Below, piece after piece: positions 28,918 to 43,653 of a stretch of DNA of 64,000 nucleotides; the first letter of the stretch is position 1; the number at the start of each line of letters is the position of its first letter. The position numbers and the translations under genes were made by a program. The notes beneath the pieces were generated by a model. It was given only the letters and a program-made list of their open reading frames with translations. It did not search any database and had not been told where the DNA came from. The DNA comes from Solirubrobacterales bacterium. Its GTDB lineage: Bacteria > Actinomycetota > Thermoleophilia > Solirubrobacterales > 70-9. Location of the stretch: NCBI GenBank assembly GCA_049585815.1, contig JBAVAR010000011.1, forward strand, positions 4,919 through 68,918, in the 5' to 3' direction.

Positions 28918-31900
28918 GTGGCAGCATCTATTTCGAGGATTGGGGGGGCTCGGGCGATCGCCTGTGCCGCGATTGCCGTCGGCCTACTCCTCCTCCTCGT
29001 CCTCCCGGTTTCGCAGAGCTTCGCCAGCGAACACACTGAAGTGACCGGCGAATACGGCAAGGAAGGCCCGAAATCCAGCGGGCTCGGCGTTGGCTGTCAC
29101 CTCGGCTACAACGGTTCCACTGGGCACCTCTATCTCGCGGCTGACGGCAAAATCTACGGTCTCGCCGTCAGTTCTGGCTCGGCAACCCCGCTCGGCGGCA
29201 AATTCCCCGTCACCACTGGAATCAGCACCGGATGCGGCGAACCCGACATCGAAGTCGAAAGCTCGGGCGCCGGCAACATCTACGGCGTCCAGTCCGGAGG
29301 GAACGGCGAAATCTATGGCTGGGACTCGAGCGGCAACGCCCTCGGGACGCCATGGCCGGTATCCGTCCCAGGTGGCGGGGAACTGTGTGGCGTCGACGTC
29401 GGCCCGGGCGGTGGGCCATGGGCCGGCGATTACAGCCAGCAGAAAATATTCAAATATTCCGCAGCGGGGACTGCGACTGGGACAATCAACGTTGGCTTCA
29501 GTCTCTGCAAGCTCGCCGTAGATCACGTCACCGGCGACGTTTACGCCTCCTCTTACGGGGGCGGCCAACTAGTCGAGTTCACCGCCTCCAGCGGCTACAC
29601 CGAAAAAATCACTTTCCCGGCGCCTGGCGGCGAACCCGGTCTTGCCGTCAATGACGCCGAACACAAGCTCTATGTCGGAAACGGCAGCTCCACCGTCAAG
29701 GTCTATAACACCGAAACCACGAGCCTGATCGAAACGATCACCCTCCCCGAAGAAGGAGGACATGGGCTCGCAGTCGATGAAGGGACCGACACCCTCTTCG
29801 TCGCCATCGGCTCGGGCTCCAGCGGCTACATCGTGGAATATCTCGGGCTCACAACCCCGAAGGCGACGACGGGAGAACCGACCGGGAACAGCGAAGTGAG
29901 CGGAACCGCGAACCCCAATGGCGTCGGCCCGATCACCGAATGCTACTTCGAATATGGACTCACCACGGCCTACGGAAGCAAACAGAACTGCGCCGAGTCG
30001 ACACCGATCTCAAGCGAAGAGACAGTTCACGCGAACCTGCCGGGCCTGATCGGCGAGGAAACCTACCACTACCGTTTGGTCCTGACGAACGGCGAACCGC
30101 ACGTCATTGGCAGGGGGGCCGATAAGACAATCACCCCGCACAACGTCAAAGGCCTGTTCACGGAAGCGGCGAGCGAAGTGACACAGGACTCAGCCATCCT
30201 TAACGCCCGTTTCGAAGGCACCAATGAAGATACCCACTACTACTTCGAATATGGGCAGACCACAAATTACGGTCACAAGACGGCGATCCCGCCGGGCGAA
30301 GACGTGGGCGCGACGACCGGGGCCACGCACATTTCCAGCACGATCGCCGGCCTGGAACCCGGTATTACCTACCACTTTCGCGTCGTCGCCGAAAATTCAA
30401 TCGGCCTATCGAAGGCAAACGACAATTCCTTCAGGACGAACCAATTGCCGGCGATCATCTCCGATACAACCAGTCACATCACTGAAACGTCCGCGGAGGT
30501 AGACGCGACGATTAATCCGCATGAATTCGAAACTGACTACTTTGTTGAATACGGACCGACCCCCCAATACGGCTCGATTGCCCCGATTCCTCACGGCATC
30601 CTCGCGCCAGGCAACAGCGCCGAAAGCGTCCCAATCCAGCTTACCGGGCTCCAGGGAATCCGCTATCACTTTCGGGTTGTTGCGGCCAATCGCTGGGGCC
30701 GTGTGGAAACTGAAGACCAGAGCTTCAACTTCTATCCACCATCCTGTCCAAACTCGATCGTGCGTCAGCAGAACGAAAGCGAGTACCTGCCGGACTGCCG
30801 CTCCTATGAGCTGGTCTCACCCGAAGAAACCGGTGCGGTTGAGCTGACCAATTCCGAATTCACCGCGGATCCCTACGCAACCAATCCTCCCCGGTTCGCT
30901 TTTGTGGGATTCCTGGGCGGGATCAACGGCACCGAACCAACCAACTCCGGTGACGATACCTACGTCGCCACGCGAACCAGCATCGGTTGGAAAACCCACC
31001 TGGTGGGAGTACGCGGCTTCGAAGGACAGGCTTCGGGCCCACTGTTTGCGAGCCCGGACTTCAGCAAGTTTTTGAATTTCGATGAACCGCCTTTCTTCGA
31101 AGGACAACCCCAGCCACCGCACAACATTCCGTACACCTGGGACAGCGAAGGCAATCCGCTAGGCCGCTTGCCGGCTAATTTCGAAAGCGTTCCGAAGGCA
31201 GAAGAAAACCTCGGCGCATACCAGCCGTCCCCGGATCTGAATCATCTCGCCTTTTCCTCTAGCAACATTGCCTTCACTTCCGAAGGACTGACGACTCCGC
31301 CCGGGTCTGCCTACGACTACAACGTGGCTACGGAAACCACGACATTGATTTCCAAAAAGGCAAACGGTGAAAACATCGAACAGGAGCCCGGAAACACCAG
31401 TGCCACCAAAGAGGAGATCCTCTTTCCAGGTGACAATCCCGAATATGGCGGATACGGCTATGGCTCGATGGCGCCTCCTTACCATCCGGGGGTGTCGACT
31501 GACGGTTCCCACATTCTGATGTCGACCGCGAGCGCGCCCTACAACCACTTCAACGAACCGCCGAAACCCACGCGACTCTACATGCGGGTAAACGACCTCG
31601 TAACGTACGAAGTCTCACAGGGGCACGACGTCAACTACGTTGGGATGACTGCCGACGGGACTAAAGTCTTCTTCACCTCCCCCGAACGGCTGACCTCCGA
31701 AGACACGGATAACAGCGTCGACCTCTACATGTGGAGCGAAGCAGGAAACAAGCTTACCCTGGTCTCCAAGGGCGGTGAAGGAGCCGAAGGCAGTGGAAAC
31801 AGCGACGAATGCAACGCAACGTGGGTGAGCGGATGCGGGATTCGGCCGCTTGAGACTCAGCATTACACGGATAACTCGATCGCTGGCGAAAGTGGCGAAA

Positions 31901-32784
31901 TCTACTTCTACTCGCCTGAACAGCTCGACAAAACAAAAGGCGTGCCGAACCAGCAGAACCTCTATGTCTACCGTGACGGCAGCCCCCAGTTCGTTGCGAC
32001 GCTCAGCCCGATCGGGGGCGAAGAAGGACCGGTGACGCGCGTCCAGGTGTCCCCCGACGGAAGTCATGCGGCGTTCGTCACCTCCAGTCAGGTGACCAGC
32101 TACAACAACGCCGGCATGGCGGAGATGTACTCATACGACCCCTCCCAGGGGTTGGTCGTCTGCGTCTCCTGCCGGCCGGACGGCTTGCCGCCGACGGTGA
32201 ACGTCGAAGCCAGCAAGATGGGCCTGTTCATGTCGAACGACGGCAGGACCTTCTTCTCGACCGAAGATCCGCTGGTGCCGACGGACACGAACGAAGCGCA
32301 GGACGTCTACGAGTACGTGGAAGGCAGGCCGCAGTTGATTACCCCGGGCACCGGTACGAGCCAGTCACATCTGGGCGGGTACGGCGGCAGCGGCAACAAG
32401 GGGTCCGAAGGGCTCGCTGGAGTCAGCGCCGACGGCGTCAATGTCTACTTCTCCACCCGGGACATCCTCGTTCCGCAAAACAAAAACGGGCCATTCCTCG
32501 CCTTCTATGACGCTCGCACCGACGGCGGTTTCCTCTATGAACCACCGCTGGCTCCGTGCGAAGCTGCCGACGAGTGCCACGGTGCCGGCAATTCCACCCC
32601 GGTGGAACCCACGGTGTCCAGCGAAGGCAGTCTCGGCTCTCGCGGCAACGCGCCAAACCCGAAGCGGCAGAGGGTCAAGCGAAGTCATCACCGGCGCCAC
32701 CACCGAAAGAGCCAGCGCCGCCATGGCAGGCGCCACCATCGCTCCAAGTTCCAGCGGCAGCAAGGAAGCTACCGCCATGCATAG
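28918..32784 (+). CDS. Giant secreted protein A1 (1288 aa), function unknown. It comprises a signal peptide, NHL/YVTN-like propeller blades, three Fn3-like YG.T..YG units, a PD40/TolB-like propeller region, a C-terminal DECHG Cys motif and a His/Arg-rich tail.
   Basis: GTG start with AGGAG SD. Signal peptide MAASISRIGGARAIACAAIAVGLLLLLVLPVSQSFA. Blades such as GNIYGVQSGGNGEIYGWDSSGN, GDVYASSYGGGQLVEF and HKLYVGNGSSTVKVYN. Fn3-like units run from aa ~316-606 (CYFEYGLTTAYG..YHYRLV; YYFEYGQTTNYG..YHFRVVAEN; YFVEYGPTPQYG..YHFRVVAAN). PD40-like repeats include DGTKVFFTSPERLTSEDTDNSVDLYMW and NDGRTFFSTEDPLVPTDTNEAQDVYEY. The end is FYDARTDGGFLYEPPLAPCEAADECHGAG...KRQRVKRSHHRRHHRKSQRRHGRRHHRSKFQRQQGSYRHA. 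Confidence 0.85.
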   Translation: MAASISRIGGARAIACAAIAVGLLLLLVLPVSQSFASEHTEVTGEYGKEGPKSSGLGVGCHLGYNGSTGHLYLAADGKIYGLAVSSGSATPLGGKFPVTTGISTGCGEPDIEVESSGAGNIYGVQSGGNGEIYGWDSSGNALGTPWPVSVPGGGELCGVDVGPGGGPWAGDYSQQKIFKYSAAGTATGTINVGFSLCKLAVDHVTGDVYASSYGGGQLVEFTASSGYTEKITFPAPGGEPGLAVNDAEHKLYVGNGSSTVKVYNTETTSLIETITLPEEGGHGLAVDEGTDTLFVAIGSGSSGYIVEYLGLTTPKATTGEPTGNSEVSGTANPNGVGPITECYFEYGLTTAYGSKQNCAESTPISSEETVHANLPGLIGEETYHYRLVLTNGEPHVIGRGADKTITPHNVKGLFTEAASEVTQDSAILNARFEGTNEDTHYYFEYGQTTNYGHKTAIPPGEDVGATTGATHISSTIAGLEPGITYHFRVVAENSIGLSKANDNSFRTNQLPAIISDTTSHITETSAEVDATINPHEFETDYFVEYGPTPQYGSIAPIPHGILAPGNSAESVPIQLTGLQGIRYHFRVVAANRWGRVETEDQSFNFYPPSCPNSIVRQQNESEYLPDCRSYELVSPEETGAVELTNSEFTADPYATNPPRFAFVGFLGGINGTEPTNSGDDTYVATRTSIGWKTHLVGVRGFEGQASGPLFASPDFSKFLNFDEPPFFEGQPQPPHNIPYTWDSEGNPLGRLPANFESVPKAEENLGAYQPSPDLNHLAFSSSNIAFTSEGLTTPPGSAYDYNVATETTTLISKKANGENIEQEPGNTSATKEEILFPGDNPEYGGYGYGSMAPPYHPGVSTDGSHILMSTASAPYNHFNEPPKPTRLYMRVNDLVTYEVSQGHDVNYVGMTADGTKVFFTSPERLTSEDTDNSVDLYMWSEAGNKLTLVSKGGEGAEGSGNSDECNATWVSGCGIRPLETQHYTDNSIAGESGEIYFYSPEQLDKTKGVPNQQNLYVYRDGSPQFVATLSPIGGEEGPVTRVQVSPDGSHAAFVTSSQVTSYNNAGMAEMYSYDPSQGLVVCVSCRPDGLPPTVNVEASKMGLFMSNDGRTFFSTEDPLVPTDTNEAQDVYEYVEGRPQLITPGTGTSQSHLGGYGGSGNKGSEGLAGVSADGVNVYFSTRDILVPQNKNGPFLAFYDARTDGGFLYEPPLAPCEAADECHGAGNSTPVEPTVSSEGSLGSRGNAPNPKRQRVKRSHHRRHHRKSQRRHGRRHHRSKFQRQQGSYRHA

Positions 32785-35581
32785 CAGTCGACACACATTC
32801 TCACTGCGATGGATTGGCGTGAAGCGCCGCCGCTCCCTTGGCCTTTCCGTCACGACGCTGATTGCGGCGGTCGCCACGGTGGCTGCACTGGCGCCCGGAC
32901 GTGCTGGGGCAGAATCTCCGATATACCAATTTGAAGTCACTCCGTCCACCACTCAGGCAGGCGGGCACCCGAATCTCCACACGCTGGTTTGGGTCGGGAA
33001 TCGCTATACGCAGCAGATTCCTCCGCCCAGCTGCGACTGCCAGGACCCGAAGGACGTGACTGTTGAAATGCCGACCGGCGTCATCGGGCTTCCGCAGGCG
33101 ATGCCGAAATGCAGCGCCGCCGACTTCGCCGACCAGGAATGCCCGCCGGAGACGCAGATCGGGGCCGCCGTCATCAGCATCAACGCGGAACCGCCCGGCA
33201 CCTCGGGTTTTGGCAGGATCGCAATTTTCAACCTCGAACCGCACCCGGGCGAAGCGGGGCTTTTCGGCTTCACTTTCCCGCTCCTGCGTTTTCCCGTATA
33301 CCAGTCGATCAACTCGCGGACCGAGAGTGACTACGGCCTGGATGTAGGCACGGTCAACATCACTCATCTTCTGCCGCTCGCCTTTGTCGAAGAGAACATC
33401 TGGGGCGTGCCGGCATCGCCCGAACACGATGCGGAACGGATGCCGACTGGATGGGAATCGTTCTTCGACGGGATAAATCCTCCGACGCCGTCCACCGAAT
33501 TGGAAGTCCCATTCATCAACAACCCGACCACGTGCGGTCAGCAAAACCTCACCGCGAATGTGACCGTCCTTTCTTACGACAAAGGAGTGACTCACGCCAG
33601 CCATCCCTATCCTCCGACCACAGGCTGCGATCAGCTCAGCTTCAATCCGAGCCTCTACGCACAGCCCACGACGACGGCGACCGACTCGGCCTCCGGCCTT
33701 GACGTCGATCTCCAGGTGCCCCAGCAGCTCAGCCCGGAAGTAGCCTCACCCTCGGAGATCCGTGCGACGACGGTCGCGCTGCCCTCCGGATTCTCCATCA
33801 ATCCCAACGCCGCCGATGGAAAGACGTCGTGCTCGAACGCCGAAGCGGAGATCGGCACCCGACTCGAAGCGCAATGCCCGGAAGACTCGAAGGTGGGCAC
33901 CGTGAGCGTGGACAGCTCGGCGCTGCCGGGACCGATTCCCGGCTACATCTATCTCGGTACGCCGTTGCCCGGCGATCGCTACCGGCTGATTCTCACCGCC
34001 AATGGCTACAACGTCCACGTCAAGCTGCCGGGTTCGGTTCTCGCCAACGAACAGAATGGCCAGGTCACCGTTTCCTTCCAGGACCTTCCCCAGACTCCGT
34101 TCTCCGCGTTCAACATGCACTTCTTCGGTTCCGAACGGGGACTGCTCGCGACCCCCGAAAAGTGCGGCACCTATGGCGTCAGCAGCACCTTCACGCCGTG
34201 GGACAACCTTCTCTCCGAACAGACCTCCACGCAGTACTTCACCCTGAGCAGCGGTCCTGGCGACAGTAGCTGTCCGGCCTCCAGCCGCCCGTTCAACCCG
34301 ACCTTCAGCGCAGGCGTGGCGGACAGGACCGGCGGAGCGCATTCGCCATTCTCGGTCGTTCTCAAGAGGCCCGACGGCGATCAGAACCTGAGCGGACTGG
34401 ACGTGACGACCCCGCCGGGGCTCGCCGCGACCCTCGCGGGCGTCTCCTATTGCCCCGATGCGACGCTCGCCGCGGCTGCCACATCGGTGTCTGGCCTATC
34501 CGAGCTTGCCAGCCCGAGCTGTCCCGCGAGCTCCCGGATCGGGACCGCCTCAACCGCCTCCGGTGCGGGCGATCATCCTCTCTATCTACCTGGTCAGGTC
34601 TACCTGGCGGGACCTTACAAGGGCGCCCCGCTCAGCCTCGCGGTGATCACCCCCGCCGTTTCCGGCCCCTATGACCTGGGCAACGTCGTCGTGCGCGCCG
34701 CGCTCCAGGTCAACCCGGTGAACGCCCAAATCACCGCGGTAACTGACCCCCTGCCCCAGATCATCGACGGGATCCCGCTGCGCCTGCGTCAGATTCAGGT
34801 CGATCTCAACCGGCCCCAATTTGCGCTCAACCCAACCAACTGCTCTCAGTTTGCAGTCCAAGCGAAGATTTTCGGCAATCAGGGGGCTGAGGCGGACCCC
34901 GCGGCGCCCTTCCAGGTCGCCAACTGCGCCGAAATGCCTTTTGGCGCGAAGCTGCAGCTGATGCTCCACGGGGGCACGAAGCGGGCTCAGACCCCGGCCT
35001 TGACGGCCGTACTCACCGCTCGTCCCGGAGAAGCGAACATCGCCAAGACCGTGGTCACGATGCCAAACTCGATCTTCCTCGACAACGCTCACGTCCGCGG
35101 GCCGTGTACCAAAGTACAGTTCGCGGCAAACAGCTGTCCGCCCGGCTCGATACTCGGCACCGCAAAGGCCGAATCACCGCTGCTGGCCCAGCCGCTTGAA
35201 GGAAATGTATATCTGGCCACCGGCTATGGCCACAAGCTGCCGGACATCCTCGCCGCGCTGAAAGGGCAGGTCAACATAAACCTCGATGGTCGCGTGGATT
35301 CGGTTCACCAGAGCCTGCGCACCAGTTTCGAAGCGGTGCCGGACGTGCCGGTGACAAGGTTCGTACTCAATCTGCGCGGAGGAAGTAGGGGCTTGCTGGA
35401 AAATAGTGCCAACCTCTGCGCCAAGGTGCAGCGAGCGACCGTCAATATGACGGGTCAGAACAACCTCCGCACCAACACGAAGCCAAAGCTGCAGCTTTCG
35501 TGTGGCGGACACGGCAACAGCAGCAACCTCAAGCGTAAGCAGCAAAGGCGCCCGGCTCCGACGGGGAGAGGGACAAGGTGA
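32777..35581 (+). CDS. Secreted four-module protein B1 (934 aa), function unknown. Paralogue of B2.
   Basis: I place the start at ATG 32777 (SD AAGGAAG), overlapping the A1 stop as ATGCATAG. The N-terminus is MHSSRHTFSLRWIGVKRRRSLGLSVTTLIAAVATVAALAPGRAGA (signal). The mature N-terminus is ...FEVTPSTTQAGGHPNLHT. A Cys-pair module recurs about four times (LP.G...NP...C....CP..S.(I/V)GT...P(L/I).G.(V/I)YL...(L/V)P..P(F/V)..F..........L...C). It ends in a basic C-terminus ...LKRKQQRRPAPTGRGTR. Confidence 0.85.
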   Translation: MHSSRHTFSLRWIGVKRRRSLGLSVTTLIAAVATVAALAPGRAGAESPIYQFEVTPSTTQAGGHPNLHTLVWVGNRYTQQIPPPSCDCQDPKDVTVEMPTGVIGLPQAMPKCSAADFADQECPPETQIGAAVISINAEPPGTSGFGRIAIFNLEPHPGEAGLFGFTFPLLRFPVYQSINSRTESDYGLDVGTVNITHLLPLAFVEENIWGVPASPEHDAERMPTGWESFFDGINPPTPSTELEVPFINNPTTCGQQNLTANVTVLSYDKGVTHASHPYPPTTGCDQLSFNPSLYAQPTTTATDSASGLDVDLQVPQQLSPEVASPSEIRATTVALPSGFSINPNAADGKTSCSNAEAEIGTRLEAQCPEDSKVGTVSVDSSALPGPIPGYIYLGTPLPGDRYRLILTANGYNVHVKLPGSVLANEQNGQVTVSFQDLPQTPFSAFNMHFFGSERGLLATPEKCGTYGVSSTFTPWDNLLSEQTSTQYFTLSSGPGDSSCPASSRPFNPTFSAGVADRTGGAHSPFSVVLKRPDGDQNLSGLDVTTPPGLAATLAGVSYCPDATLAAAATSVSGLSELASPSCPASSRIGTASTASGAGDHPLYLPGQVYLAGPYKGAPLSLAVITPAVSGPYDLGNVVVRAALQVNPVNAQITAVTDPLPQIIDGIPLRLRQIQVDLNRPQFALNPTNCSQFAVQAKIFGNQGAEADPAAPFQVANCAEMPFGAKLQLMLHGGTKRAQTPALTAVLTARPGEANIAKTVVTMPNSIFLDNAHVRGPCTKVQFAANSCPPGSILGTAKAESPLLAQPLEGNVYLATGYGHKLPDILAALKGQVNINLDGRVDSVHQSLRTSFEAVPDVPVTRFVLNLRGGSRGLLENSANLCAKVQRATVNMTGQNNLRTNTKPKLQLSCGGHGNSSNLKRKQQRRPAPTGRGTR

Positions 35582-38500
35582 CCTGCACGGGATCGACAAT
35601 CGGGCGACGCATGCGGGTTGCCATTCTGGGAGCCTGCCTGGCAGCGGGAGTGTCGCTGCTTGCTGCCGGGCCCGCGGAGGCGGTGCAGTGGACCCCCCAC
35701 TCCTATGAAAAGAGCATTAGCGGATGGTCGGGCGGTGGTAGGAGCGTTGCGGTTGATCAGCAGAGTGGGGACTTCTACATAGCCACAATCGAACCCGGGC
35801 TCCGTATCTACAAATTCAATGCTCAGGGTGAACCGAGCGCATTCAGCGCCCTCGGAGGGGCGAGCTATATCCAGGTTACGAGCGAAGAAGTCTGCAGCTG
35901 CAGTGAAGCTCGCGTCGTAGTTGATAATTCCGGAGGGTCAGATCAGGGGCGCATCTACGTAATCAGCAGTTGGCGTGACAAAACCTGGGCCTTCGAACCC
36001 AGCGGAACTCCGGTCGGCGGAGCCTTCCCAATAGACAGCTCTGAAGGGGAGCTGGCGATCAGCCCCACCACCGGCAATTTCTTTGTGACCGGAACGCCCC
36101 TGCTGGAACGCGCATATGAATACAATCACGCTGGGGAAAAGACAGGCAACTACGTCGATCTCAGTACGTGGGGAAGCACCGACATGGTGCTAAGTCCGAC
36201 TGGAAACTGGTACACCTACCATGGGTATCAGGAACCGCGTGGAATTCTTAAACAGAACGCGTCGGGCGAACTAATTGAACACCTGTATTCCCAATTTTCA
36301 GAAGCCTTCAACATCAATTCGAAATCCGGCAACGTGCTCTCCGCCCGAGAAGAAGAAATTGCTGAATTTGATCCCAACGGTAACGAATTACCGCGCTTCG
36401 AATACGAATCCGAAGGTGAAGCGAAAGCAGTCGCGGTAAACGCGGTCAACAATTACATCTATGTGCTAAAGAATTACGGCGGCAACGAGCTGAGCATCTA
36501 TGCACCGGGAGCTCCAGTAACGGCCCCGTCGGCCGAAAACGAATCGCCCACGAATATCAAAGGAACGTCTATGACGTTGCATGCCTCGGTTGAACCCGAA
36601 GGCGTGACGACGACCGAATGTGCCTTCGAATTCACAACCACAGAAGAATACGGCTATATAGATTACGAAGAACACAGAGTGCCCTGCGAACAGGGGAAAG
36701 CAATATCCGGCAGTTCTTCCACACCTGTCAGCGCGATGATTACTGGCTTGACCCAAGGAGCCACCTACCACACACGCCTTGATGTCGGCAACGCAAACGG
36801 CGAATTCCATACCAGGGACGCCAAGGTGATCCCCTCCGAACCCCCGGTCATCGAAAGCCCCTACATCGACAGCGTCCATACCGACAGCGTCGAATTCCAC
36901 GCTGAAATCACCCCGGAAGGGGCTCCGACCACTTTCCACGTGCTCTACGGAACGGCCAACTGCGCCGCCGAACCCGAAGCCTGTTCCCAGACCCCCGAGA
37001 CCTCCTCGATCGGAAACGGTCTACTGCCGATCGCGGTCAGCGCCCACGTGACCGGGCTGAAGCCGGGAACCACATACCACTACATAATCGTCGCGACCAA
37101 CCAGAGCGCCACCGTTGAATCGACAAACGGGACCTTCACCACGTTCCCCTATACACCGGTGCTCGAAGACAGCTGTCCCAATGCTCACGTTCGTCAACAG
37201 ACCAGCGCCGCGCTGCTGCCGGACTGCCGTGCCTATGAGCTGGTCTCGGCCGGCAGGGCCGGTGGATACGATGTCGAGTCGTTCCTCAACGCCGAACAGG
37301 AACCGTTCGGTGGCTATCCCTACGCGGAGAATCCGCCACGCGCCCTCTACGGCGTCCACGACGGAGCAATTCCCGGTAGCGGACACCCGACCAATCACGG
37401 TCTCGACCCCTACGTCGCGACCCGCGGTGAAGAAGGTTGGAGCACATCCTACGTCGGCATTCCGGCCAATCTTCCGTATTCGACTGAATCGTTCGCTTCG
37501 CCGCTGGCTGGCGCAGACTCCTCGTTGGACACGTTCGCCTTCGGCGGTCCGGGACTGTGCTCGCCATGCTTCGCGGACGGCACCACCGGCGTGCCGGTGA
37601 CACTTCCCAACGGCAGCTTGGTGCAGGGCATGGCCGGATCAGAGCAGCCTGGCGCCGGCGCGAGCGCCAGCATGCTCGTGAAGAAGCCGCTCTCCTCTGA
37701 CGGCAGGCACCTGATCTTCGGCTCGGACTCCGAATTCGAGGCCGGTGCCGGAAGCCCCGCGATCTACGATCGCAACCTCACCACCGACGTCACTCATGCG
37801 GTCTCGAAGCTGCCCGGAGGCGGAAGCATTCCCTGTCTGATGGACTGCAGCTCCGACGGTCTCGCGGAGCTCGATGTCTCCAGCGACGGCTCGCGCATTG
37901 TCATCGGGCAGTTGATCTCGAAAGATGCCGCGGGCAATCGCTACTGGCACCTGTACATGAATATCGGCGACTCTGGCCAGACGATCGACCTTACCCCTGG
38001 GGCGACGGAAGGTGCTCTCTACGACGGGATGACCGCCGACGGGTCCATGGTGTACTTCACTACGAAGAACCAGCTGACCGGCCAGGACACTGACAGCAGT
38101 GCCGACATCTACCGGGCCGACGTCACCACCTCCGGCGCGAACCTTTCGCTCGTCTCGATCGGCAGCGGCGGCAGCGGCAACTCCGAATCCTGCGAACCGC
38201 TCGGCGACTCCCAGAATGAACATTGGAACAGCGTCCAATCCACACCCAACTGCGACGCTGTCGCGGTCGGCGGCGGCGGCGGAGTCGCGGCGGCCGACGG
38301 AAGCATCTATTTCCTCAGTCCCGAACTGCTGGACGGAGGCGTCGAACCCACGGACGGCGTCGCCAACCAGCCCAACCTCTACATCTCCCGCCCCGGATCG
38401 CCCCCCAGCTTCGTCGCCACTCTTGAGTCGAGTGCCACCGGTCCGACGCCGCCGCTGGAGGAACATCGGTTCGCGAAGTACTTTGGCCCGAGCAGCAACA

Positions 38501-40113
38501 CCCAGTTCGTCGCAGTTGACAACTCCGGCGGGCCCTCCGACGGCGACGTCTACGTCGTCAACCGCAATGAACAGGTGATTCGCAAGTACGACTCCGAAGG
38601 CAACCTGGTGACCAGCTGGCAGAACAATGGCGTTTTCGATCCCAGTTTGGCGCACGAAATCGCCGGCATTGCTGTGGGAGGCCCGGAAAATGCTCTCTAC
38701 GTCGCGATCGACGAAGAAGTCAACTCCGGGGAAAACCGGATATTCGAGTACGACGAAAACGGCAACCAGCTCGCGTCAACTTCAAATGTTGAAAAGGCTC
38801 CGGAACCGATCGGAATCGCGGTCGACTCGCAAGGGAATGTCTTCTACGAGGGCTACGGCGTGGTCATGCGCTGGCAGAAGGGCAAAGGATCGACTGAAAT
38901 CGCTGGCGGCACTTACAACTCGCCGCCGCCGACGGGACTCGCTGTCAATCCGAGCACTGGCACTCTCTACGTGAGCTACGGCGGCCAAGAAATCTCGCGC
39001 TACGCGTTCAGCTCAGAAGGAAAGGTGATCGAACCGAGTGGCGAATGTGCGTCCCGCTGCGAACCAACGTCGACCTTTGGCGCCGGCGAAGTCTCGAACG
39101 CGAGCGGCATGTTCGTCGACCCCACCCGCGGCGAACTGTACGTCGACGAGGGCAACAAGATCATCCGCTTCCTCGGAACTGGCACCCGTGCCCCCGGGCC
39201 GGATGTTGGGGTCAAGAAGATCAACAACTCATCCTCGGTTGCGCTCAGCTCCTCCACCGATCTCTATGCAACTAACGCCGGCTCCGAAGGTGCCGACGTG
39301 GCGGCGTTCGGCCCGATCCGCCTGGCCCCCGATCCCCGCACCGACAATCCGCTCGTGCTCGACTCCGTGAACGAAGCAGGATCCCGGCGCACCGGTGATT
39401 TCCAGATCACACCGAATGGAGACAAGGCGGTCTTCCTCTCGACGATCGCCTACACCGGTCACGTGACCGGTCGGCGGGAGGAGGTGTTTCTCTCCGAATC
39501 GACGGGCGGGACGCTCGATTGCGTCTCCTGCAATCCGACGAATGCCCAGGCGCTCGGCGGGGCCTCGCTCGCCCGTGACGGGCTCAGCCTGACCGATGAA
39601 GGGAGGGTGTTTTTCAACTCGACCGATGTCCTCTCCCCCCGTGACTTGGATAACCGCGAAGACGTCTATGAGTGGGAGAACGGCAAGACCAGCCTGATTT
39701 CCACCGGCCTCAGTCCCTTCAACTCCACGCTGTTGACGGCGAGCGCTAACGGCAAGGATGCATTCTTCTTCACACGGGACACTCTGGTTCCCCAGGATCA
39801 GAACGGCAGCCTCGTAAAGCTCTACGACGCTCGCGAAGGTGGCGGCTTTCCCTATACGCCGCCGCCGGTGAGTTGCAAAGCGTCCGACGAGTGCCACGGT
39901 CCCGGTACGCAGGCAGCTCCGGCACCGGCCGTCAACTCGATCACCGGCACCGGTGGAAATCACGTGCAATCGACCCACGCGCTGAAGTGCCGACACGGGC
40001 AGGTTAAGCGGCACGGCCGCTGCGTCAGGCAGCACAGGCGCGGCCACCTCCGCCATCACCGGCGCGCCAAGAGCAAGCGAGATGGCGGGCAAAGCACGGG
40101 GGGGAGGCGATGA
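35578..40113 (+). CDS. Giant secreted protein A2 (1511 aa), function unknown. Paralogue of A1 with an extra internal NHL-like propeller block.
   Basis: GTG 35578 (SD GGGGAGAGGGA, GTGA overlap with the B1 stop). The alternative ATG 35611 gives MRVAILGACLAAGVSLLAAGPAEA. Blocks shared with A1: SCPNAHVRQQTSAALLPDCRAYELVS, NPPR..YVATRGEEGWS, LDCVSCNPTNAQ, DEGRVFFNSTDVLSPRDLDNREDVYEW, LYDAREGGGFPYTPPPVSCKASDECHGPG. The tail is LKCRHGQVKRHGRCVRQHRRGHLRHHRRAKSKRDGGQSTGGRR. Confidence 0.85.
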   Translation: MTCTGSTIGRRMRVAILGACLAAGVSLLAAGPAEAVQWTPHSYEKSISGWSGGGRSVAVDQQSGDFYIATIEPGLRIYKFNAQGEPSAFSALGGASYIQVTSEEVCSCSEARVVVDNSGGSDQGRIYVISSWRDKTWAFEPSGTPVGGAFPIDSSEGELAISPTTGNFFVTGTPLLERAYEYNHAGEKTGNYVDLSTWGSTDMVLSPTGNWYTYHGYQEPRGILKQNASGELIEHLYSQFSEAFNINSKSGNVLSAREEEIAEFDPNGNELPRFEYESEGEAKAVAVNAVNNYIYVLKNYGGNELSIYAPGAPVTAPSAENESPTNIKGTSMTLHASVEPEGVTTTECAFEFTTTEEYGYIDYEEHRVPCEQGKAISGSSSTPVSAMITGLTQGATYHTRLDVGNANGEFHTRDAKVIPSEPPVIESPYIDSVHTDSVEFHAEITPEGAPTTFHVLYGTANCAAEPEACSQTPETSSIGNGLLPIAVSAHVTGLKPGTTYHYIIVATNQSATVESTNGTFTTFPYTPVLEDSCPNAHVRQQTSAALLPDCRAYELVSAGRAGGYDVESFLNAEQEPFGGYPYAENPPRALYGVHDGAIPGSGHPTNHGLDPYVATRGEEGWSTSYVGIPANLPYSTESFASPLAGADSSLDTFAFGGPGLCSPCFADGTTGVPVTLPNGSLVQGMAGSEQPGAGASASMLVKKPLSSDGRHLIFGSDSEFEAGAGSPAIYDRNLTTDVTHAVSKLPGGGSIPCLMDCSSDGLAELDVSSDGSRIVIGQLISKDAAGNRYWHLYMNIGDSGQTIDLTPGATEGALYDGMTADGSMVYFTTKNQLTGQDTDSSADIYRADVTTSGANLSLVSIGSGGSGNSESCEPLGDSQNEHWNSVQSTPNCDAVAVGGGGGVAAADGSIYFLSPELLDGGVEPTDGVANQPNLYISRPGSPPSFVATLESSATGPTPPLEEHRFAKYFGPSSNTQFVAVDNSGGPSDGDVYVVNRNEQVIRKYDSEGNLVTSWQNNGVFDPSLAHEIAGIAVGGPENALYVAIDEEVNSGENRIFEYDENGNQLASTSNVEKAPEPIGIAVDSQGNVFYEGYGVVMRWQKGKGSTEIAGGTYNSPPPTGLAVNPSTGTLYVSYGGQEISRYAFSSEGKVIEPSGECASRCEPTSTFGAGEVSNASGMFVDPTRGELYVDEGNKIIRFLGTGTRAPGPDVGVKKINNSSSVALSSSTDLYATNAGSEGADVAAFGPIRLAPDPRTDNPLVLDSVNEAGSRRTGDFQITPNGDKAVFLSTIAYTGHVTGRREEVFLSESTGGTLDCVSCNPTNAQALGGASLARDGLSLTDEGRVFFNSTDVLSPRDLDNREDVYEWENGKTSLISTGLSPFNSTLLTASANGKDAFFFTRDTLVPQDQNGSLVKLYDAREGGGFPYTPPPVSCKASDECHGPGTQAAPAPAVNSITGTGGNHVQSTHALKCRHGQVKRHGRCVRQHRRGHLRHHRRAKSKRDGGQSTGGRR

Positions 40114-42926
40114 TGGCAGCTGGATCGACCAGGGAGCTCCGCCGCGCCGGGGCGACCGCGAGGTCACTACATCCGCGAGCGCCCCGTATCCTGCGCGTGC
40201 TCAGCCTCACGATTGGTCTCTCGCTGCTGCTGGTCGGCTTCACTGTCGGCACCGCACAGGCGACCGAGCGGATCGAATCATTCTCGACCACCACCTCGAC
40301 GACGCAGGCGGGGGGGCACCCGGATCTACACACCTCGTTTTCGCTCAACAGTCCGGGACTCCCTGAGGCCGCGGAAAACGTGACCGTCGAAACTCCGCAG
40401 GGCGTGTTCGGCAACCCGAACGCGATTTCGCAGTGCGCCTCGGTGGTCTTCGCTGACGAGGAATGCGCCCCCGCGTCCCAGGCGGGTGTGATCACGGTGT
40501 ACGCCCGCTATGAAGGCGATCCGAATTTTCTCCTGGGTACTGCGCCGATCTATGATCTTGTGCCGTCTGAAGGCGAAACGGCGCTGTTCGGCTTCATCGT
40601 ACCGATTCTGAACATCCCGATCCAGATCCCGGTCGCGGTGCGAACGGACAGCGACTACGGATTGCGCTTCAAGGTATCCGAGATCACCCAGGTCACGCCG
40701 CTGTCGGCGGCGAATCTCACCTTCTGGGGCTTTCCAGCGGAAGCAAGTCACGAATCCGAACGCTTTCCGCGGGGAGCCAGCGGGCTACCGGCCGGGTGTG
40801 CCGGGTTGGCGAACACGAGCTGCCTCGCCAACCCCACTCCGGTCTACATCGCGATCCATCCGCTCACCGATAATCCGACGACCTGCAATGGGCAGTCACT
40901 GATGACCACACTCAAAGTGCAGACCTATCAGGATCCCAATCACGAATCGGAAGCGCACGACGAATATCCCGCGACGACCGGGTGCGAAAAAGAGCTGTTC
41001 AAGCCGCTCCTGTACTCGCAGCCCACGAGCACCACCACCGATTCTCCCTCTGGCCTCGACATCACGCTTTCCGATACCCAGTTCCTCGGCTTCGCCGTCT
41101 CCCCTTCGGAGATCCGCGAATCAACGGTCGTTCTTCCGGCCGGCCTGACGATTAATCCGGACGCAGCCGACGGTCAGACGGCATGCACTGATGCCGAGGC
41201 GAACTTCGAAAGCGAAGCCGCCGCATCCTGCCCTGACAGCTCGAAGATCGGCACTGTCGCGCTGCACACTCCCGCCCTCGCCGGGCCGCTCGAGGGCTCG
41301 GTCTACATGGGCGAACCGAAGCCGAACGACCAGTACCGCCTGTTCATGGTGGTCGACGGCTTCGGTCTCCACGCCAAGCTTGTCGGCTCGGTCAGGCCTG
41401 ATCCTGTCACCGGGCAGGTGTCTGTCCACTTCGAAGATCTGCCCCAGGTTCCCTTCAACGAATTTGACCTTCATCTGTTCTCCTCCGACCGGGGCCTGAT
41501 GGCGACGCCGACTGTCTGCACGATCTACAACACGGAAGCGACCTTCGTGCCGTGGAACAATCTTTTGCCGACGGCCAGTTCGAGTCAGGTCTTCGGCCTC
41601 ACCGCCGGTCCCAACGGTGGGCCCTGTCCGGGAATAATCCGTCCGTTCCATCCGACCTTGGCCGCGGGAACCACTCACTCACTTGCCGGCGGCTTCTCCA
41701 GCTTCTCGCTGAAGTTGAACCGCGAAGACGGCGACCAGTACCTCGGCAAGTTGAACTTCACCATGCCTCCAGGCCTCACCGCCAACCTGCACGGCGTCAC
41801 CTACTGCCCCGAATCCGACATCACAGCTGCCGCCAACACCCTCGGCAAGGTCGAGCAGGCCGATCCCAGCTGCCCGGCCTCCAGCGAAATTGGCACTTCC
41901 AACGTCGCCGCTGGACCCGGATCGCACCCCTTCCACGCGGTGGGCAAGATCTACCTCTCCGGGCCTTTCCAGGGCGCTCCCCTCAGTCTGGTCGCGATCA
42001 CTCCCGCTCTCGCCGGTCCCTATGACTACGGCACGGTGGTTGTTCGTGTGGCCCTCCACATCGATCAGCGGGATGCGCACGTGGTTGCCGACTCCGAAAC
42101 GGTTCCCTCGATCATCGGCGGCATCCCGCTGCGGATGCGCGAAATCAGGGTCAACATCGAACGTCCAAACTTTATGATCAATCCGACAAACTGTTCGCCG
42201 TTCTCGGTCGCCTCACAGGGCATCGGCGACCAGGGAACGGTCGCCAACTTCAGCTCCTACTTCCACGTCAACGACTGCTCGACCCTCCCCTTCAACCCGA
42301 AGATGACGGTCACCCAGCTCGGTGGCCATAGGTTCACCGCCCGCGGCAAGGACCCTGCCCTGCAGTTTGACCTCAACACCACCGAAGGCGACGCCAACCT
42401 CAAATCTGTCTCGGTGACGCTGCCAAAGGCCTTTGAGATCGATCAGCGCCACCTCGGCAACCTCTGCTCCCGCTCCCAGCTTGAAAAAGAACACTGCGCC
42501 GGGCGCCAGCCGATCGGCTTCGTCAAAGACGAAACGCCGCTGCTCGAAAAGCCGCTCGAAGGCCCCGCCTACGCGGTCTCCGGTTTCTCCAATGGCAAAA
42601 ACGTCCTGCCCCACATCGCCTTCATCCTCGGCGGCCAGGTCACCGTCGTGCCCCAGGCCGAATCGATGACGCTTGGAGGCGGACGCCTCAAAACTACGGT
42701 CCCGGTGATCCCCGACGTGCCGATCGGCCACTTTCGCTTCACCCTGCTCAGTGGCGCTCAGGGCTACGTCTCAAACACCGAAAGCCTCTGCGCCGCCGAT
42801 CCGGTGATCGCCGTGCAGCTGAACGGCCAAAACGGCAAGTCGATCACCCAGCAGGTGAAGACGAGGACCGCCTGCAGGGCAAAGAAGCAACACAAGCGCA
42901 AGGCAAGGCGCCACCGCCGGCGCTGA
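40110..42926 (+). CDS. Secreted four-module protein B2 (938 aa), function unknown. Paralogue of B1.
   Basis: ATGA overlap with the A2 stop (40110-40113), SD GGGAGG. It has a hydrophobic N-terminal segment RILRVLSLTIGLSLLLVGFTVGTAQA. The mature N-terminus is ..FSTTTSTTQAGGHPDLHT. It is collinear with B1 throughout, for example VVLPAGLTINPDAADGQTACTDAEANFESEAAASCPDSSKIGTVALHTPALAGPLEGSVYMG. The tail is KTRTACRAKKQHKRKARRHRRR. Confidence 0.85.
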   Translation: MMAAGSTRELRRAGATARSLHPRAPRILRVLSLTIGLSLLLVGFTVGTAQATERIESFSTTTSTTQAGGHPDLHTSFSLNSPGLPEAAENVTVETPQGVFGNPNAISQCASVVFADEECAPASQAGVITVYARYEGDPNFLLGTAPIYDLVPSEGETALFGFIVPILNIPIQIPVAVRTDSDYGLRFKVSEITQVTPLSAANLTFWGFPAEASHESERFPRGASGLPAGCAGLANTSCLANPTPVYIAIHPLTDNPTTCNGQSLMTTLKVQTYQDPNHESEAHDEYPATTGCEKELFKPLLYSQPTSTTTDSPSGLDITLSDTQFLGFAVSPSEIRESTVVLPAGLTINPDAADGQTACTDAEANFESEAAASCPDSSKIGTVALHTPALAGPLEGSVYMGEPKPNDQYRLFMVVDGFGLHAKLVGSVRPDPVTGQVSVHFEDLPQVPFNEFDLHLFSSDRGLMATPTVCTIYNTEATFVPWNNLLPTASSSQVFGLTAGPNGGPCPGIIRPFHPTLAAGTTHSLAGGFSSFSLKLNREDGDQYLGKLNFTMPPGLTANLHGVTYCPESDITAAANTLGKVEQADPSCPASSEIGTSNVAAGPGSHPFHAVGKIYLSGPFQGAPLSLVAITPALAGPYDYGTVVVRVALHIDQRDAHVVADSETVPSIIGGIPLRMREIRVNIERPNFMINPTNCSPFSVASQGIGDQGTVANFSSYFHVNDCSTLPFNPKMTVTQLGGHRFTARGKDPALQFDLNTTEGDANLKSVSVTLPKAFEIDQRHLGNLCSRSQLEKEHCAGRQPIGFVKDETPLLEKPLEGPAYAVSGFSNGKNVLPHIAFILGGQVTVVPQAESMTLGGGRLKTTVPVIPDVPIGHFRFTLLSGAQGYVSNTESLCAADPVIAVQLNGQNGKSITQQVKTRTACRAKKQHKRKARRHRRR

Positions 42927-43023: not shown

Positions 43024-43653
43024 ATGAAGGCAAAGCTGAAGGGCAAGCTGACCTACGCCAACGTGGTCTCCACGCTGTGCCTGTTCGTGCTCTTGGGGGG
43101 AAGCGCCTACGCGGCCCTGAAGATCCCCCGCAACTCGGTCGGCACCCGCCAGCTGCAGGCAAAGTCGGTGACCAACGGCAAGCTCGCAAACGGCGCCGTC
43201 AACGGCGCCAAAATCGCCGAAGGATCGATCACCGGCCAAAACATCAACCTCTCTGCCCTTGGCACCGTGCCCAATGCCGCCAACGCAGTCTCCGCCCAAA
43301 ACGCCAACACCGTCGATGAACACTCGGCCTCCTGCCCCCAGGGAGCGACTCTGATCAGGGGCCTTTGCTTTGACGCCCAGCCCAACCCAGCGGTCTCAAC
43401 GGTCAAGGAAGCAGCCGACGATTGCGCCGCCAAGGGCGGCTACCTGCCCTCCCCGCTTGAGCTCTACTCGGTACGCGGCGTGCTCAACCTGGGCACAGGC
43501 GTCGGCTCTGATCATCAATACACCGATGAGTTCTACGGCAATACCAACGGCACCAACTACCGCACCGTCGTCGTCGACGGGACCGGGGCGATCAGTGAGT
43601 CTGAAATCAACGCCCCCTCCAAATACACCTGCGTTTATCCGCTGGTGCGGTAG
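43024..43653 (+). CDS. N-terminally anchored/secreted protein with short V/I-x-(T/N)-x-K/Q-(L/I) tail-fibre-like repeats and a Cys-containing C-terminal globular domain (possibly C-type-lectin/DUF1566-like)
   Basis: SD AAGGAG. The N-terminus is MKAKLKGKLTYANVVSTLCLFVLLGGSAYAA. The repeats read LKIPRNSVGTRQLQAKSVTNGKLANGAVNGAKIAEGSITGQNINLSALG. The C-terminal domain reads ...CPQGATLIRGLCFDA...VKEAADDCAAKGGYLPSPLELYSV...KYTCVYPLVR. The fold assignment is tentative. Confidence 0.7.
   Translation: MKAKLKGKLTYANVVSTLCLFVLLGGSAYAALKIPRNSVGTRQLQAKSVTNGKLANGAVNGAKIAEGSITGQNINLSALGTVPNAANAVSAQNANTVDEHSASCPQGATLIRGLCFDAQPNPAVSTVKEAADDCAAKGGYLPSPLELYSVRGVLNLGTGVGSDHQYTDEFYGNTNGTNYRTVVVDGTGAISESEINAPSKYTCVYPLVR

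Follow-up and report, generated by a model that had tools for sequence, protein, structure and literature searches.

Polybasic C-terminal tails on acidic secreted proteins of Solirubrobacterales: a possible polyanion-binding retention element

Solirubrobacterales are abundant, almost uncultured soil Actinomycetota. In a 64-kb stretch of DNA from this order (the window, by which we mean the whole stretch that was analyzed; 63% G+C), 37 proteins were called, and the original prediction held that five of them, all secreted, end in strongly basic C-terminal tails. The locus raises the question of whether these tails are a real and specific feature and, if so, what a cluster of positive charge could do at the end of an exported protein. 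The genes concerned are as follows.

28918..32784, + strand: gene A1, an open reading frame of 1288 aa
32759..32784, + strand: A1/B1 junction, the ATGCATAG overlap, read from the sequence
32777..35581, + strand: gene B1, 934 aa, a secreted all-beta multi-domain protein
35578..40113, + strand: gene A2, 1511 aa, a paralogue of A1
40110..42926, + strand: gene B2, 938 aa, a secreted chain of beta-sandwich domains
6184..8106, + strand: gene of an unlinked repeat protein, 640 aa

A1, B1, A2, and B2 form one translationally coupled A-B-A-B operon, and the repeat protein gene is monocistronic. All five proteins begin with N-terminal n-h-c regions that resemble signal peptides. These calls combine sequence inspection with a heuristic, and both this heuristic and the gene caller are crude; an SDR and an epimerase, for example, were wrongly flagged as having signal peptides. 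The tails are located at the opposite ends.

32656..32781, + strand: A1 tail, 42 aa with 25 K/R/H (8 of them His), no D/E, and no Cys
35528..35578, + strand: B1 tail, 17 aa with 7 K/R/H, the weakest of the five
39982..40110, + strand: A2 tail, 43 aa with 22 K/R/H and 2 Cys
42858..42923, + strand: B2 tail, 22 aa with 15 K/R/H and 1 Cys
7912..8103, + strand: repeat protein tail, 64 aa with 24 K/R, 1 His, and 4 Cys

Translation of these intervals returned sequences and counts identical to those originally reported, and a stop codon lies directly 3' of each of them. With the K/R/H frequency of the window itself as the reference (0.106), the binomial P values of the K/R/H content range from 1e-10 to 1e-14 for four tails, and the value for B1 is 1.6e-4. 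Polybasic 25-aa stretches, defined by at least 11 K/R/H and at most 2 D/E, account for 75 of the 13,186 sliding windows across the 37 proteins, and all 75 fall at the very C-terminal ends of four proteins, namely A1, A2, B2, and the repeat protein. The A1 tail, which contains HHRRHH runs, follows a Pro/Ser/Gly linker that ends in GSRGNAPNP. The B2 tail starts directly after C922, the last Cys of the protein and one that is invariant in the family. Both members of the coupled A-B pair are tailed. No tandem repeat was found by TRF in any tail, and a microsatellite or slippage origin was rejected.

The bodies that precede the tails are large and rich in beta structure. A1 consists of a signal peptide, a beta-propeller/NHL-like region, FN3-like repeats, and a TolB-like C-terminal half, with the motif PCEAADECHG about 25 aa N-terminal to the tail; it gave weak fn3, Pur_ac_phosph_N, and YncE matches in the Pfam/NCBIfam search and is 100% identical to WB507_01010 from a Solirubrobacterales MAG. 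The net charge of the body is −88 in A1 and −99 in A2. B2 has no Pfam, NCBIfam, or PDB sequence match; its AF2 model is all-beta (pLDDT 77.7), and Foldseek returned weak similarity to integrin-alpha leg domains and the streptococcal AgI/II C123 adhesin. The repeat protein (AF2 model, pLDDT 91) runs from its signal peptide through four CUB/PPC-like beta-sandwich repeats and a linker to a basic C-terminal domain with four Cys, and its Foldseek matches are the CUB domains of neuropilin and cubilin and the collagen-binding domains of ColG. These fold matches say no more than that B2 and the repeat protein are surface proteins of a binding or stalk type. Whole-chain TM-scores of the two sets of matches are 0.1–0.2, and the chains are generic beta-sandwich chains. 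Among solved structures, a sequence search found no relative of A, B, the repeat protein, or the 4-Cys domain apart from generic FN3/titin.

The carriers had been described as otherwise unrelated, which holds in part. A1 and A2 (~30% identity) and B1 and B2 (42% identity) are paralogue pairs within one operon, so the window contains three independent families rather than five. B2 and the repeat protein have no similarity to A-type bodies, and related genomes add independent families with Cys-loop tails, including bodies without detectable similarity to A, B, or the repeat protein. In all, the A-type, B, repeat protein, g0144-type, g0153-type, and g0571-type bodies are mutually unrelated.

Three forms of the basic end can be distinguished: a plain disordered tail, a disulfide loop plus tail (A2), and a folded basic helical mini-domain with four Cys (repeat protein). 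The plain form is illustrated by B2, in which residues 924–938 have pLDDT below 50 and are predicted to be disordered. The other two forms are defined by the following elements.

39988..40032, + strand: basic Cys loop CRHGQVKRHGRCVRQ in the A2 tail, a motif instance identified by alignment
7924..8094, + strand: basic helical mini-domain of the repeat protein, residues 581–637 of the AF2 model

The Cys spacing noticed originally is a real and sharply conserved motif. Its consensus is C[KR][KR]G[FQK]V[KR][KR]xG[KR]CV[KR][KR], with C, G, and C invariant and G, V, and V conserved at 90% or above. A profile of the loop matched 201 clusters at E<=1e-3 (1.84 billion representatives searched), nearly all within the last ~45 aa of the protein; cluster look-up showed that all of these are metagenome proteins. 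The loop, sometimes in tandem, is found C-terminal to FN3-like domains, C.ASDECHG modules, CEGE.CQG modules, and InlB-B-repeat-like domains. By its resemblance to EGF/TIL-type hairpins, it probably folds as a beta-hairpin.

The tail of the repeat protein, originally counted as a fifth tail of the same kind, is instead confidently predicted to be a folded three-helix domain (helices 581–592, 598–620, and 626–637) that follows a disordered linker (571–579). The four Cys lie at positions 13, 31, 44, and 56 of the tail (spacings of 18, 13, and 12 residues) and correspond to the invariant C589, C607, C620, and C632. Homologues from Solirubrobacterales/Thermoleophilia share the consensus FNLKKAIKKCKKI..KKKR..CIKKARKKAAIIKCKKL......KCIKKARKRFR, in versions with two or four Cys, and the 4-Cys mini-domain has no Pfam or PDB match. 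Distant homologues of the repeat protein in other phyla have a different C-terminal module at the same position, either ~70 aa ending in RFYR or an EF-hand/dockerin-like module. Such swapping is the pattern expected of an interchangeable anchor, which is a soft argument because the RFYR module is itself uncharacterized.

The tails are kept across orthologues and paralogues and across hundreds of homologues, whereas their absence from orthologues had been named as an outcome that would count against them: 114 of 120 B, 117 of 120 A, and 90 of 93 repeat protein homologues retain the feature. With a median of 20 residues in B and 34 in A, the basic region is ~58% K/R/H; K/R/H totals 0.58–0.59 ± 0.10 of tail residues, and D/E lies at 1–1.5%. 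Among full-length B proteins, 53 of 112 reach the strict tail threshold and 98 of 112 have at least 8 K/R/H in 25 residues. The fractions of K and R are anticorrelated (r = −0.71 in B, −0.73 in A), and the tails of A1 orthologues are 26% identical (22% in a shuffled control), compared with 68% for the preceding 200 aa. Judged from these alignments, selection acts on the charge of the tail rather than on its sequence. The passengers are unusually acidic, at −6.2 charges per 100 aa versus +1.7 in other signal-peptide proteins (Mann-Whitney p = 2e-27).

To see how specific the feature is, one can turn to the relatives that carry A/B loci, which are soil MAGs. Of the proteins encoded in the 1.8 Mb that surround the cassettes, a tail is present on 155 of 331 related to A/B, versus 5 of 459 unrelated ones. 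In control loci (321 kb, anchored on a housekeeping gene), the tail occurs in 1 of 272 proteins, a carrier without a signal peptide, and the background rate in relatives is ~0.4%. The concern that basic C-termini might be a composition effect shared by cytoplasmic proteins is not borne out; tails are all but absent from these (1 of 247 near cassettes, besides the 1 of 272 in control loci). Nor are tails a general mark of exported proteins: none of the 68 signal-peptide-like proteins of the control loci has one, and three secreted families adjoining the cassettes never do (s264, 25 members; s213, 14; s171, 10). The tail marks particular families, not the secretome. Retention, if real, would concern those certain secreted families alone. 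Single MAGs hold 14–16 B loci among the best 80 loci, most with tailed A and B genes.

Altogether, these observations show that the tails exist, are specific, conserve their charge, and lack a transmembrane segment, and that they are predicted to be disordered or folded. The best explanation is that several families of strongly acidic, beta-rich surface proteins, which Solirubrobacterales export by Sec, have gained a modular element. More specifically, we propose, with a confidence that falls slightly short of an even chance, that the tails are a lineage-specific polycationic element that retains acidic surface proteins non-covalently via an envelope polyanion. In this model, the cationic end of the exported protein would contact the polyanion by multivalent electrostatic binding; candidates are a wall glycopolymer with phosphate or uronate groups and the anionic lipids of the membrane. 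The linker, rich in Pro, Ser, and Gly, would bridge the wall, and the very acidic passenger, otherwise repelled and lost from the surface, would be held non-covalently. We infer both the ligand, an envelope polyanion, and the outcome, retention. The conservation of charge, the specificity and modularity of the element, and the acidity of the passengers speak for retention; the weakness of some B1-type tails, the share of B proteins below the strict threshold, and the confinement to particular families speak against it. The predicted structures fit retention, with a disordered tail in B2 and a compact basic helical module on a flexible linker in the repeat protein. According to PMC9110029, export of clustered Arg/Lys through Sec is costly and rare, and therefore the upkeep of the tails implies a benefit.

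A first alternative, fairly unlikely in our estimation, is assembly, in which the cationic tail would dock on the acidic body of the operon partner (A with B) or of a neighboring copy to build a surface lattice or fiber. Translational coupling links A and B in the conserved A-B-A-B unit, and tails on both coupled partners would equally fit such a role. The bodies have net charges of −26 to −99, and tail and body charge are weakly correlated in B (r = −0.40). However, there is no such correlation in A (r = 0.02), and the same kind of tail occurs on the unlinked, monocistronic repeat protein and on families without an A/B partner. The free drift of the tail sequence is also easier to reconcile with a generic polyanion than with a specific protein interface.

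If the polyanion were instead external, such as extracellular DNA, humic or clay surfaces, or polyphosphate, the tails would be adhesion or matrix-crosslinking ends rather than wall anchors. The charge evidence for this is identical to that for envelope retention, and the computed evidence does not separate the two. The organisms are soil MAGs, and the passengers resemble binding or adhesin modules (CUB/collagen-binding-like repeats; Ig-like chains similar to the AgI/II adhesin and integrin legs). Binding modules are, however, usually distal and anchors proximal, and a protein that has ligand-binding domains all along the chain and a cationic end behind a Pro-rich linker of the wall-spanning type looks more like an anchored one. 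We consider this reading, too, rather improbable.

A processed sorting signal, in which an enzyme would recognize the Cys loop or the upstream [SF]F.G.GN / C.A[AS]DECHG motifs, cleave the tail, and attach the protein covalently, seems quite unlikely. The tails show most of the descriptive features that Haft lists for tripartite C-terminal sorting signals, as given in bioRxiv 10.1101/2023.06.07.544157, and the invariant Cys is reminiscent of MYXO-CTERM-type signals. Against this, none of 373 tail-bearing proteins has a hydrophobic transmembrane segment in the last 70 aa (the highest Kyte-Doolittle mean over 17 residues is 1.32, so that all stay below 1.6). Signature residues are present in the Cys-loop form (C, G, V, G, C, V) and the 4-Cys helical form and in none of the plain A1, B1, and B2 tails, which are conserved no better than shuffled sequence. 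There is no LPXTG-like signal in 790 proteins, and neither full proteins nor, at E<=10, isolated tails matched the NCBIfam sorting-signal models (LPXTG, PEP-CTERM, GlyGly-CTERM, MYXO-CTERM, and others) or the Pfam wall-binding families (SLH, LysM, GW, CW_binding, SLAP). The statement that the tails are not a known sorting signal thus stands, and the suggestion of an unknown processing enzyme is not favored: the neighborhoods that we inspected contain no recurrent protease- or sortase-like gene next to the cassettes, where the neighbors are small secreted proteins of no assigned family, a double-TetR regulator, and DUF2600.

It is very unlikely that the basic ends are a kinetic device that slows the ribosome or SecYEG and so aids re-initiation on the next gene or folding and release of the passenger. 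The final codons of A1, B1, and A2 each overlap the Shine-Dalgarno region and start codon of the next gene; a Shine-Dalgarno-like AAGGAAG and the B1 start codon sit within the final A1 codons, and the last six residues of the B1 tail are encoded by the Shine-Dalgarno region (GGGGAGAGGGACAAGG) and the GTGA overlap with A2. Because of the start-codon overlap, in which an xAT-Gxx codon pair holds the ATG, related tails often end in ..HA, ..HG, or ..NG. Arg is also the slowest residue through SecYEG, according to PMC9110029. Yet the Shine-Dalgarno overlap explains only the last 2–6 residues, and the tail of B2 is among the densest even though B2 is the last gene of the operon, with a 97-nt spacer after it; translational coupling therefore cannot account for this tail. 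In the repeat protein, which is monocistronic, the basic domain is folded, and the exclusion of acidic and other purine-rich codons from the tails argues for selection on the protein, not on the mRNA.

Equally hard to credit is metal binding (Ni, Zn, or Cu), an earlier suggestion for the His-rich A tails. His makes up 13% of A tails versus 2% of the window proteome, and the HHRRHH runs of A1 would suit such a role, but its share of the tail varies between 0 and 33%, with 2% in repeat protein tails. In the close A1 orthologues P0135 and P0136, Lys replaces His to give Lys-rich, nearly His-free tails; the constant quantity is the K+R+H total. Finally, a functionless composition or annotation artifact of a high-G+C genome is effectively refuted by the background rate of 0.4% in real genes of relatives, the C-terminal-only location, and the residue make-up (Lys and His, whose codons are not GC-rich, exceed half of the basic residues), and the tails are kept in hundreds of independently assembled homologues, although out-of-frame ORFs in the 63% G+C window do encode Arg-rich peptides that reach 13 K/R/H in their last 30 aa.

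Returning to envelope retention, the element itself is most likely undescribed, with no Pfam, NCBIfam, PDB, or literature match; our literature search returned no paper that ties Solirubrobacterales to signal peptides and basic C-termini. A broader proposal, possible but doubtful, is a Thermoleophilia (Solirubrobacterales) class of surface display without a transmembrane segment, in which a polycationic module with a disulfide-loop or helical-hairpin core would have spread by domain shuffling onto many secreted families and would take the place of covalent anchoring by sortase; its partner might be a dedicated receptor or anionic wall polymer. The A-B cassettes, which encode the biggest secreted proteins, reach dozens of copies in a genome. 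Should the tail be a retention module, it would define the way in which a very high proportion of these proteins stays cell-associated, provide a simple sequence rule and two HMM-ready motifs for surface-proteome annotation, and add a class without a transmembrane segment to the bacterial C-terminal anchoring devices. The tails are also a natural counter-example to the rule, as given in PMC9110029, that Sec substrates avoid Arg and poly-Lys. Tailed proteins would be useful as substrates for studying the export of clustered positive charge, and a short, transferable cationic Cys-loop tag could serve surface display.

The known C-terminal signals offer a first comparison. Like the tripartite signals (LPXTG/sortase, PEP-CTERM/exosortase, GlyGly-CTERM/rhombosortase, and MYXO-/JDVT-/CGP-/Synerg-CTERM/myxosortase), the tails are extreme C-terminal up to the stop codon, occur in many copies per genome (five in this 64-kb window), end in basic residues, and sit on otherwise unrelated carriers with signal peptides whose homologues elsewhere lack the tail; the Cys-loop form shares an invariant Cys with the MYXO-CTERM group. 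According to bioRxiv 10.1101/2023.06.07.544157, the known sortase, exosortase, rhombosortase, and myxosortase-type signals all have a hydrophobic transmembrane segment, and tripartite signals end in a short basic cluster of 2–5 residues. The tails differ in having no membrane-spanning segment and a basic part of 15–45 residues.

The Cys loop has the spacing and G/aromatic/G pattern of the EGF/TIL-type hairpin (C-x2-G-[FY]-x4-5-G-x-C-[VI]), and its profile also matches eukaryotic TIL/EGF-like repeats and proteobacterial CPxGxVxxxGxCV repeats. TIL_2 scored E=0.23 against the isolated Cys-loop tail (11.7 bits, cut-off 24). Unlike TIL/EGF, the loop is a single isolated hairpin or 2–3 in tandem outside any multi-disulfide domain, K/R-saturated, always C-terminal, and followed by a polybasic end; with its two Cys, it lacks the complete TIL/EGF-like domain (e.g., 10 Cys in TIL). 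In the literature, the motif strings were found nowhere except in a frog TIL peptide ("GKCVKK").

The closest functional analogue of the proposed mechanism is the C-terminal TAB domain of the Lactobacillus S-layer protein SlpA, which is strongly positive and binds wall or lipoteichoic acid non-covalently via phosphate contacts (PMC11181022). By analogy with this precedent, cationic C-terminal retention is a known principle, and the best reading is that the tails would be a variant of it. In TAB, two SlpA motifs fold as a tandem that has a YxY...KxxN phosphate site, whereas the element here is a disordered tail, a disulfide loop of 15 residues, or a helical 4-Cys domain of ~56 residues, with no sequence relation to TAB. 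Within the actinobacteria, mycobacterial HBHA lies on the cell surface and binds sulfated polyanions electrostatically through a Lys-rich, low-complexity C-terminal tail; unlike the proteins described here, it is not known to have a cleavable signal peptide or a Cys loop, its tail has Lys/Ala/Pro repeats and methyl-lysines, its ligand is from the host, and it is a single gene rather than a multi-family module. The heparin-binding C-terminal tails of animal proteins (EC-SOD, long isoforms of VEGF/PlGF, class-3 semaphorins) differ in being eukaryotic, in binding heparan sulfate, and in often being cleaved by furin-type enzymes, and they are not known to have any evolutionary relation to the tails here. 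They are likewise secreted, polybasic, and often near Cys, and they hold their proteins on anionic matrix glycans, where charge matters over exact sequence.

The K/R/H-rich C-termini (tails) of five secreted proteins belong to a real C-terminal module family, which is conserved, statistically well supported, and apparently not yet described. Four of these proteins are encoded by a single operon on the + strand (28918-42926), and the fifth, the repeat protein, is unlinked to it:

28918-32784, + strand: A1, 1288 aa
32777-35581, + strand: B1, 934 aa
35578-40113, + strand: A2, 1511 aa
40110-42926, + strand: B2, 938 aa
6184-8106: repeat protein, 640 aa

The gene ends overlap along A1-B1-A2-B2 (ATGCATAG, GTGA, and ATGA), an arrangement typical of translationally coupled genes. 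A Solirubrobacterales MAG (Actinomycetota, class Thermoleophilia) encodes hypothetical proteins with 100% identity to B2 (WB507_01025), A1 (WB507_01010), and the repeat protein (WB507_00900). The operon is surrounded by ordinary housekeeping genes and a divergent gene upstream of A1 (26697-28070, - strand), whose 457-aa product has two TetR_N domains and is a candidate regulator of the operon; the retrieved cassette loci contain 10 members of this double-TetR_N family. Directly 3' of B2 are two small secreted proteins (43024-43653, 209 aa; 43936-44754, 272 aa) with neither a basic tail nor a Pfam match. Both families recur next to the cassettes of other genomes, the loci containing 14 and 25 copies, and the two proteins could serve the A/B system as accessory components. 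A-B-A-B itself is a conserved, translationally coupled four-gene cassette that has been massively amplified: of the 80 best B loci, 16 belong to MAG MFD00082.bin.1.126, in which a single 412-kb contig carries about ten of the 16, roughly 20 kb apart, and 14 belong to MAG MFD05521.bin.2.61; the query MAG has at least six B paralogues, each at >64% identity. This expanded paired family is perhaps of greater interest than the tails.

Translation of the five intervals stated in the original prediction gave every tail sequence and count listed there. K+R+H makes up 10.6% of the window proteome, and the tails are enriched with binomial P of 1e-10 to 1e-14 (B1, 1.6e-4). With polybasic defined as ≥11 K/R/H and ≤2 D/E per 25 residues (the strict threshold), 75 of 13,186 sliding 25-residue segments from 37 called proteins qualify, every one of them at a C-terminus, namely that of A1, A2, B2, or the repeat protein. 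No tandem DNA repeat lies beneath any tail.

For the background rate, genes were called from codon usage, and signal peptides were flagged by a crude test; the sample comprised the window plus 80 loci around B homologues (1.8 Mb, 790 non-redundant proteins). Polybasic C-termini were found in 155/331 A/B-related proteins, including 68/81 full-length A and, at the strict threshold, 53/112 full-length B (98/112 at ≥8/25 K/R/H). Among proteins unrelated to A/B, the count was 5/459, with 1/247 in the "cytoplasmic" class. The lone cytoplasmic positive is a MerR-type regulator (L071, 14679-15470) with the C-terminal end APKKRKKSARKGRR, which is presumably DNA-contacting and unrelated to the secreted-protein module. 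In a control sample of 36 loci at ≥67% identity to the window's carboxyltransferase, a housekeeping anchor (321 kb), 1/272 proteins had a polybasic end. A composition effect, which would have sunk the original prediction, therefore fails as an explanation because the background rate is low in unrelated and control proteins alike. The tail also fails as a general mark of exported proteins: it was found in 0/68 signal-peptide-like control proteins, and never in the secreted families s264 (25 members), s213 (14), and s171 (10) beside the cassettes. False positives of the signal-peptide heuristic (e.g., an SDR and an epimerase) only dilute the class with a signal peptide and no tail.

Database homologues (E≤1e-5 among candidates scored) numbered >1,632 for B, 467 for A, and 170 for the repeat protein; a basic tail was present in 114/120 and 117/120 of the matches listed for B and A, and in 90/93 of the closest matches listed for the repeat protein. 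The tails have a K+R+H fraction of 0.58-0.59 ± 0.10 and 1-1.5% D+E, with a strong negative correlation between K and R content (r = -0.71 in B and -0.73 in A). Tails of A1 orthologues share 26% identity with the A1 tail, compared with 22% for shuffled tails and 68% over the 200 residues preceding the tail. The conserved property of the tails is charge. As far as labelled matches show, the module is apparently limited to Solirubrobacterales/Thermoleophilia, and all 80 best genomic B loci are Solirubrobacterales. Distant repeat-protein homologues from other phyla are without the basic module; their C-termini carry a conserved ~70-residue module ending RFYR or an EF-hand/dockerin-like module. The ~70-residue (R)FYR module (database homologues P0338, P0339, P0344, P0354, P0356-P0358, and P0360) is beta-rich and matches no Pfam model at E≤1; it may serve another lineage as a C-terminal sorting or anchor domain that has yet to be curated.

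The module takes three forms. The first, a plain tail, is found in A1, B1, and B2; in the predicted B2 model, residues 924-938 have pLDDT <50. The B tail directly follows the final beta-sandwich's last Cys, an invariant residue, while the A tail is preceded by PC.A[AS]DECHG and then a ~25-residue Pro/Ser/Gly linker, often ending G.GN. The A-type pre-tail motifs (about 32560-32660 in A1 and 39880-39985 in A2) also include [SF]F.G.GN directly before the tail or Cys loop, and some relatives have CEGE.CQG in place of PC.A[AS]DECHG; possible roles of these motifs are those of a structural cap, a metal or disulfide site, or a recognition site. The second form, a Cys loop plus tail, is that of A2 (CRHGQVKRHGRCVRQ), with the aligned motif C[KR][KR]G[FQK]V[KR][KR]xG[KR]CV[KR][KR], probably a disulfide-closed beta-hairpin. 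Searched against 1.84 billion representative proteins, a 37-position profile of the loop matched 201 clusters at E≤1e-3. In nearly all bacterial matches, the loop lies within the last ~45 residues, preceded by FN3-like domains, the ECHG module, the CEGE.CQG module, or InlB-B-repeat-like domains, and sometimes repeated in tandem 2-3 times. The top matches also include a few unrelated proteins with EGF/TIL-like or CPxGxVxxxGxCV repeats; thus, the hairpin shape is generic, and its polybasic C-terminal version is not. The third form is the folded basic domain of the repeat protein (AF2 mean pLDDT 91), with a disordered linker (571-579), predicted helices at 581-592, 598-620, and 626-637 (pLDDT around 90), and invariant C589, C607, C620, and C632; relatives have a 2-Cys or 4-Cys version. 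Forms 2 and 3 are linked by the common pattern C[KR]K...[KR]C[VI][KR][KR].

The claim that the carriers are otherwise unrelated holds in part. A1 and A2 (~30% identity) and B1 and B2 (42%) are paralogues, and A-type domains occur in 56/57 Cys-loop carriers of ≥450 aa; unrelated bodies are seen in B, in the repeat protein, and in three or more other families (g0144-, g0153-, and g0571-type). In A proteins, NHL/YncE-like propellers and FN3-like domains occur together with a TolB-like half, the repeat protein has four CUB/collagen-binding-like jelly rolls, and the B2 model is a beta-sandwich chain weakly resembling integrin-alpha legs and streptococcal AgI/II C123. Tail-bearing bodies are strikingly acidic, with a median of -6.2 charges/100 residues vs +1.7 in other signal-peptide proteins (p = 2e-27); the net charge of the whole body is -88 in A1 and -99 in A2. 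The window also encodes a 676-aa secreted right-handed beta-helix protein (13618-15648, - strand) whose body is acidic (-30) and whose C-terminus has no polybasic tail; therefore, tail-less acidic secreted proteins are also present in this genome.

We tentatively favor the reading that the tails retain their proteins on an anionic component of the envelope by non-covalent electrostatic contacts. The tail would be a charge-selected, modular, polyanion-binding end of exported proteins whose body would otherwise be repelled by the surface. In favor of retention, the Pro-rich linkers seem to resemble wall-spanning segments, and Sec export of clustered Arg/Lys carries a cost and is normally avoided (PMC9110029). 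Tails that mediate A-B or lattice assembly are an unlikely alternative, and tails that bind external polyanions, e.g., eDNA or minerals, are no likelier. A processed sorting signal with a hypothetical enzyme of its own is more doubtful: the transmembrane segment is missing, and no enzyme gene recurs near the cassettes. In A1, B1, and A2, the final 2-6 codons coincide with the Shine-Dalgarno sequence and start codon of the gene that follows (32759-32784, 35560-35581, and 40090-40113), and this double use of C-terminal codons explains the recurrent tail ends ..HA, ..HG, ..NG, and ..GGRR. The overlap gives no account of the 15-45 basic residues upstream, and coupling does not explain the B2 tail because a 97-nt spacer follows B2; a kinetic or coupling device is improbable. 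His-based metal binding (tail His ranges from 0 to 33%) seems just as improbable, and an artefact is scarcely credible.

The original prediction also held that the tails are not a known sortase, lipoprotein, PEP-CTERM, GlyGly-CTERM, or LPXTG signal, and our searches agree: neither the proteins nor the isolated tails gave a Pfam, NCBIfam, or PDB sequence match. No hydrophobic stretch was found in the last 70 residues of any of 373 tail-bearing proteins (maximum 17-residue Kyte-Doolittle mean 1.32). The tails thus differ from sortase-, exosortase-, rhombosortase-, and myxosortase-type signals in being without the transmembrane part that defines them (bioRxiv 10.1101/2023.06.07.544157). Full-text searches gave no description of the module, and the one paper with a motif string in it is on a frog TIL peptide. 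The anchors listed in a wide-ranging review of how monoderms display surface proteins include no purely polybasic C-terminal one (PMC5817068). The SlpA TAB domain of Lactobacillus is a mechanistic precedent for cationic non-covalent anchoring and counts in favor of retention (PMC11181022); the principle is known, and the module apparently is not.
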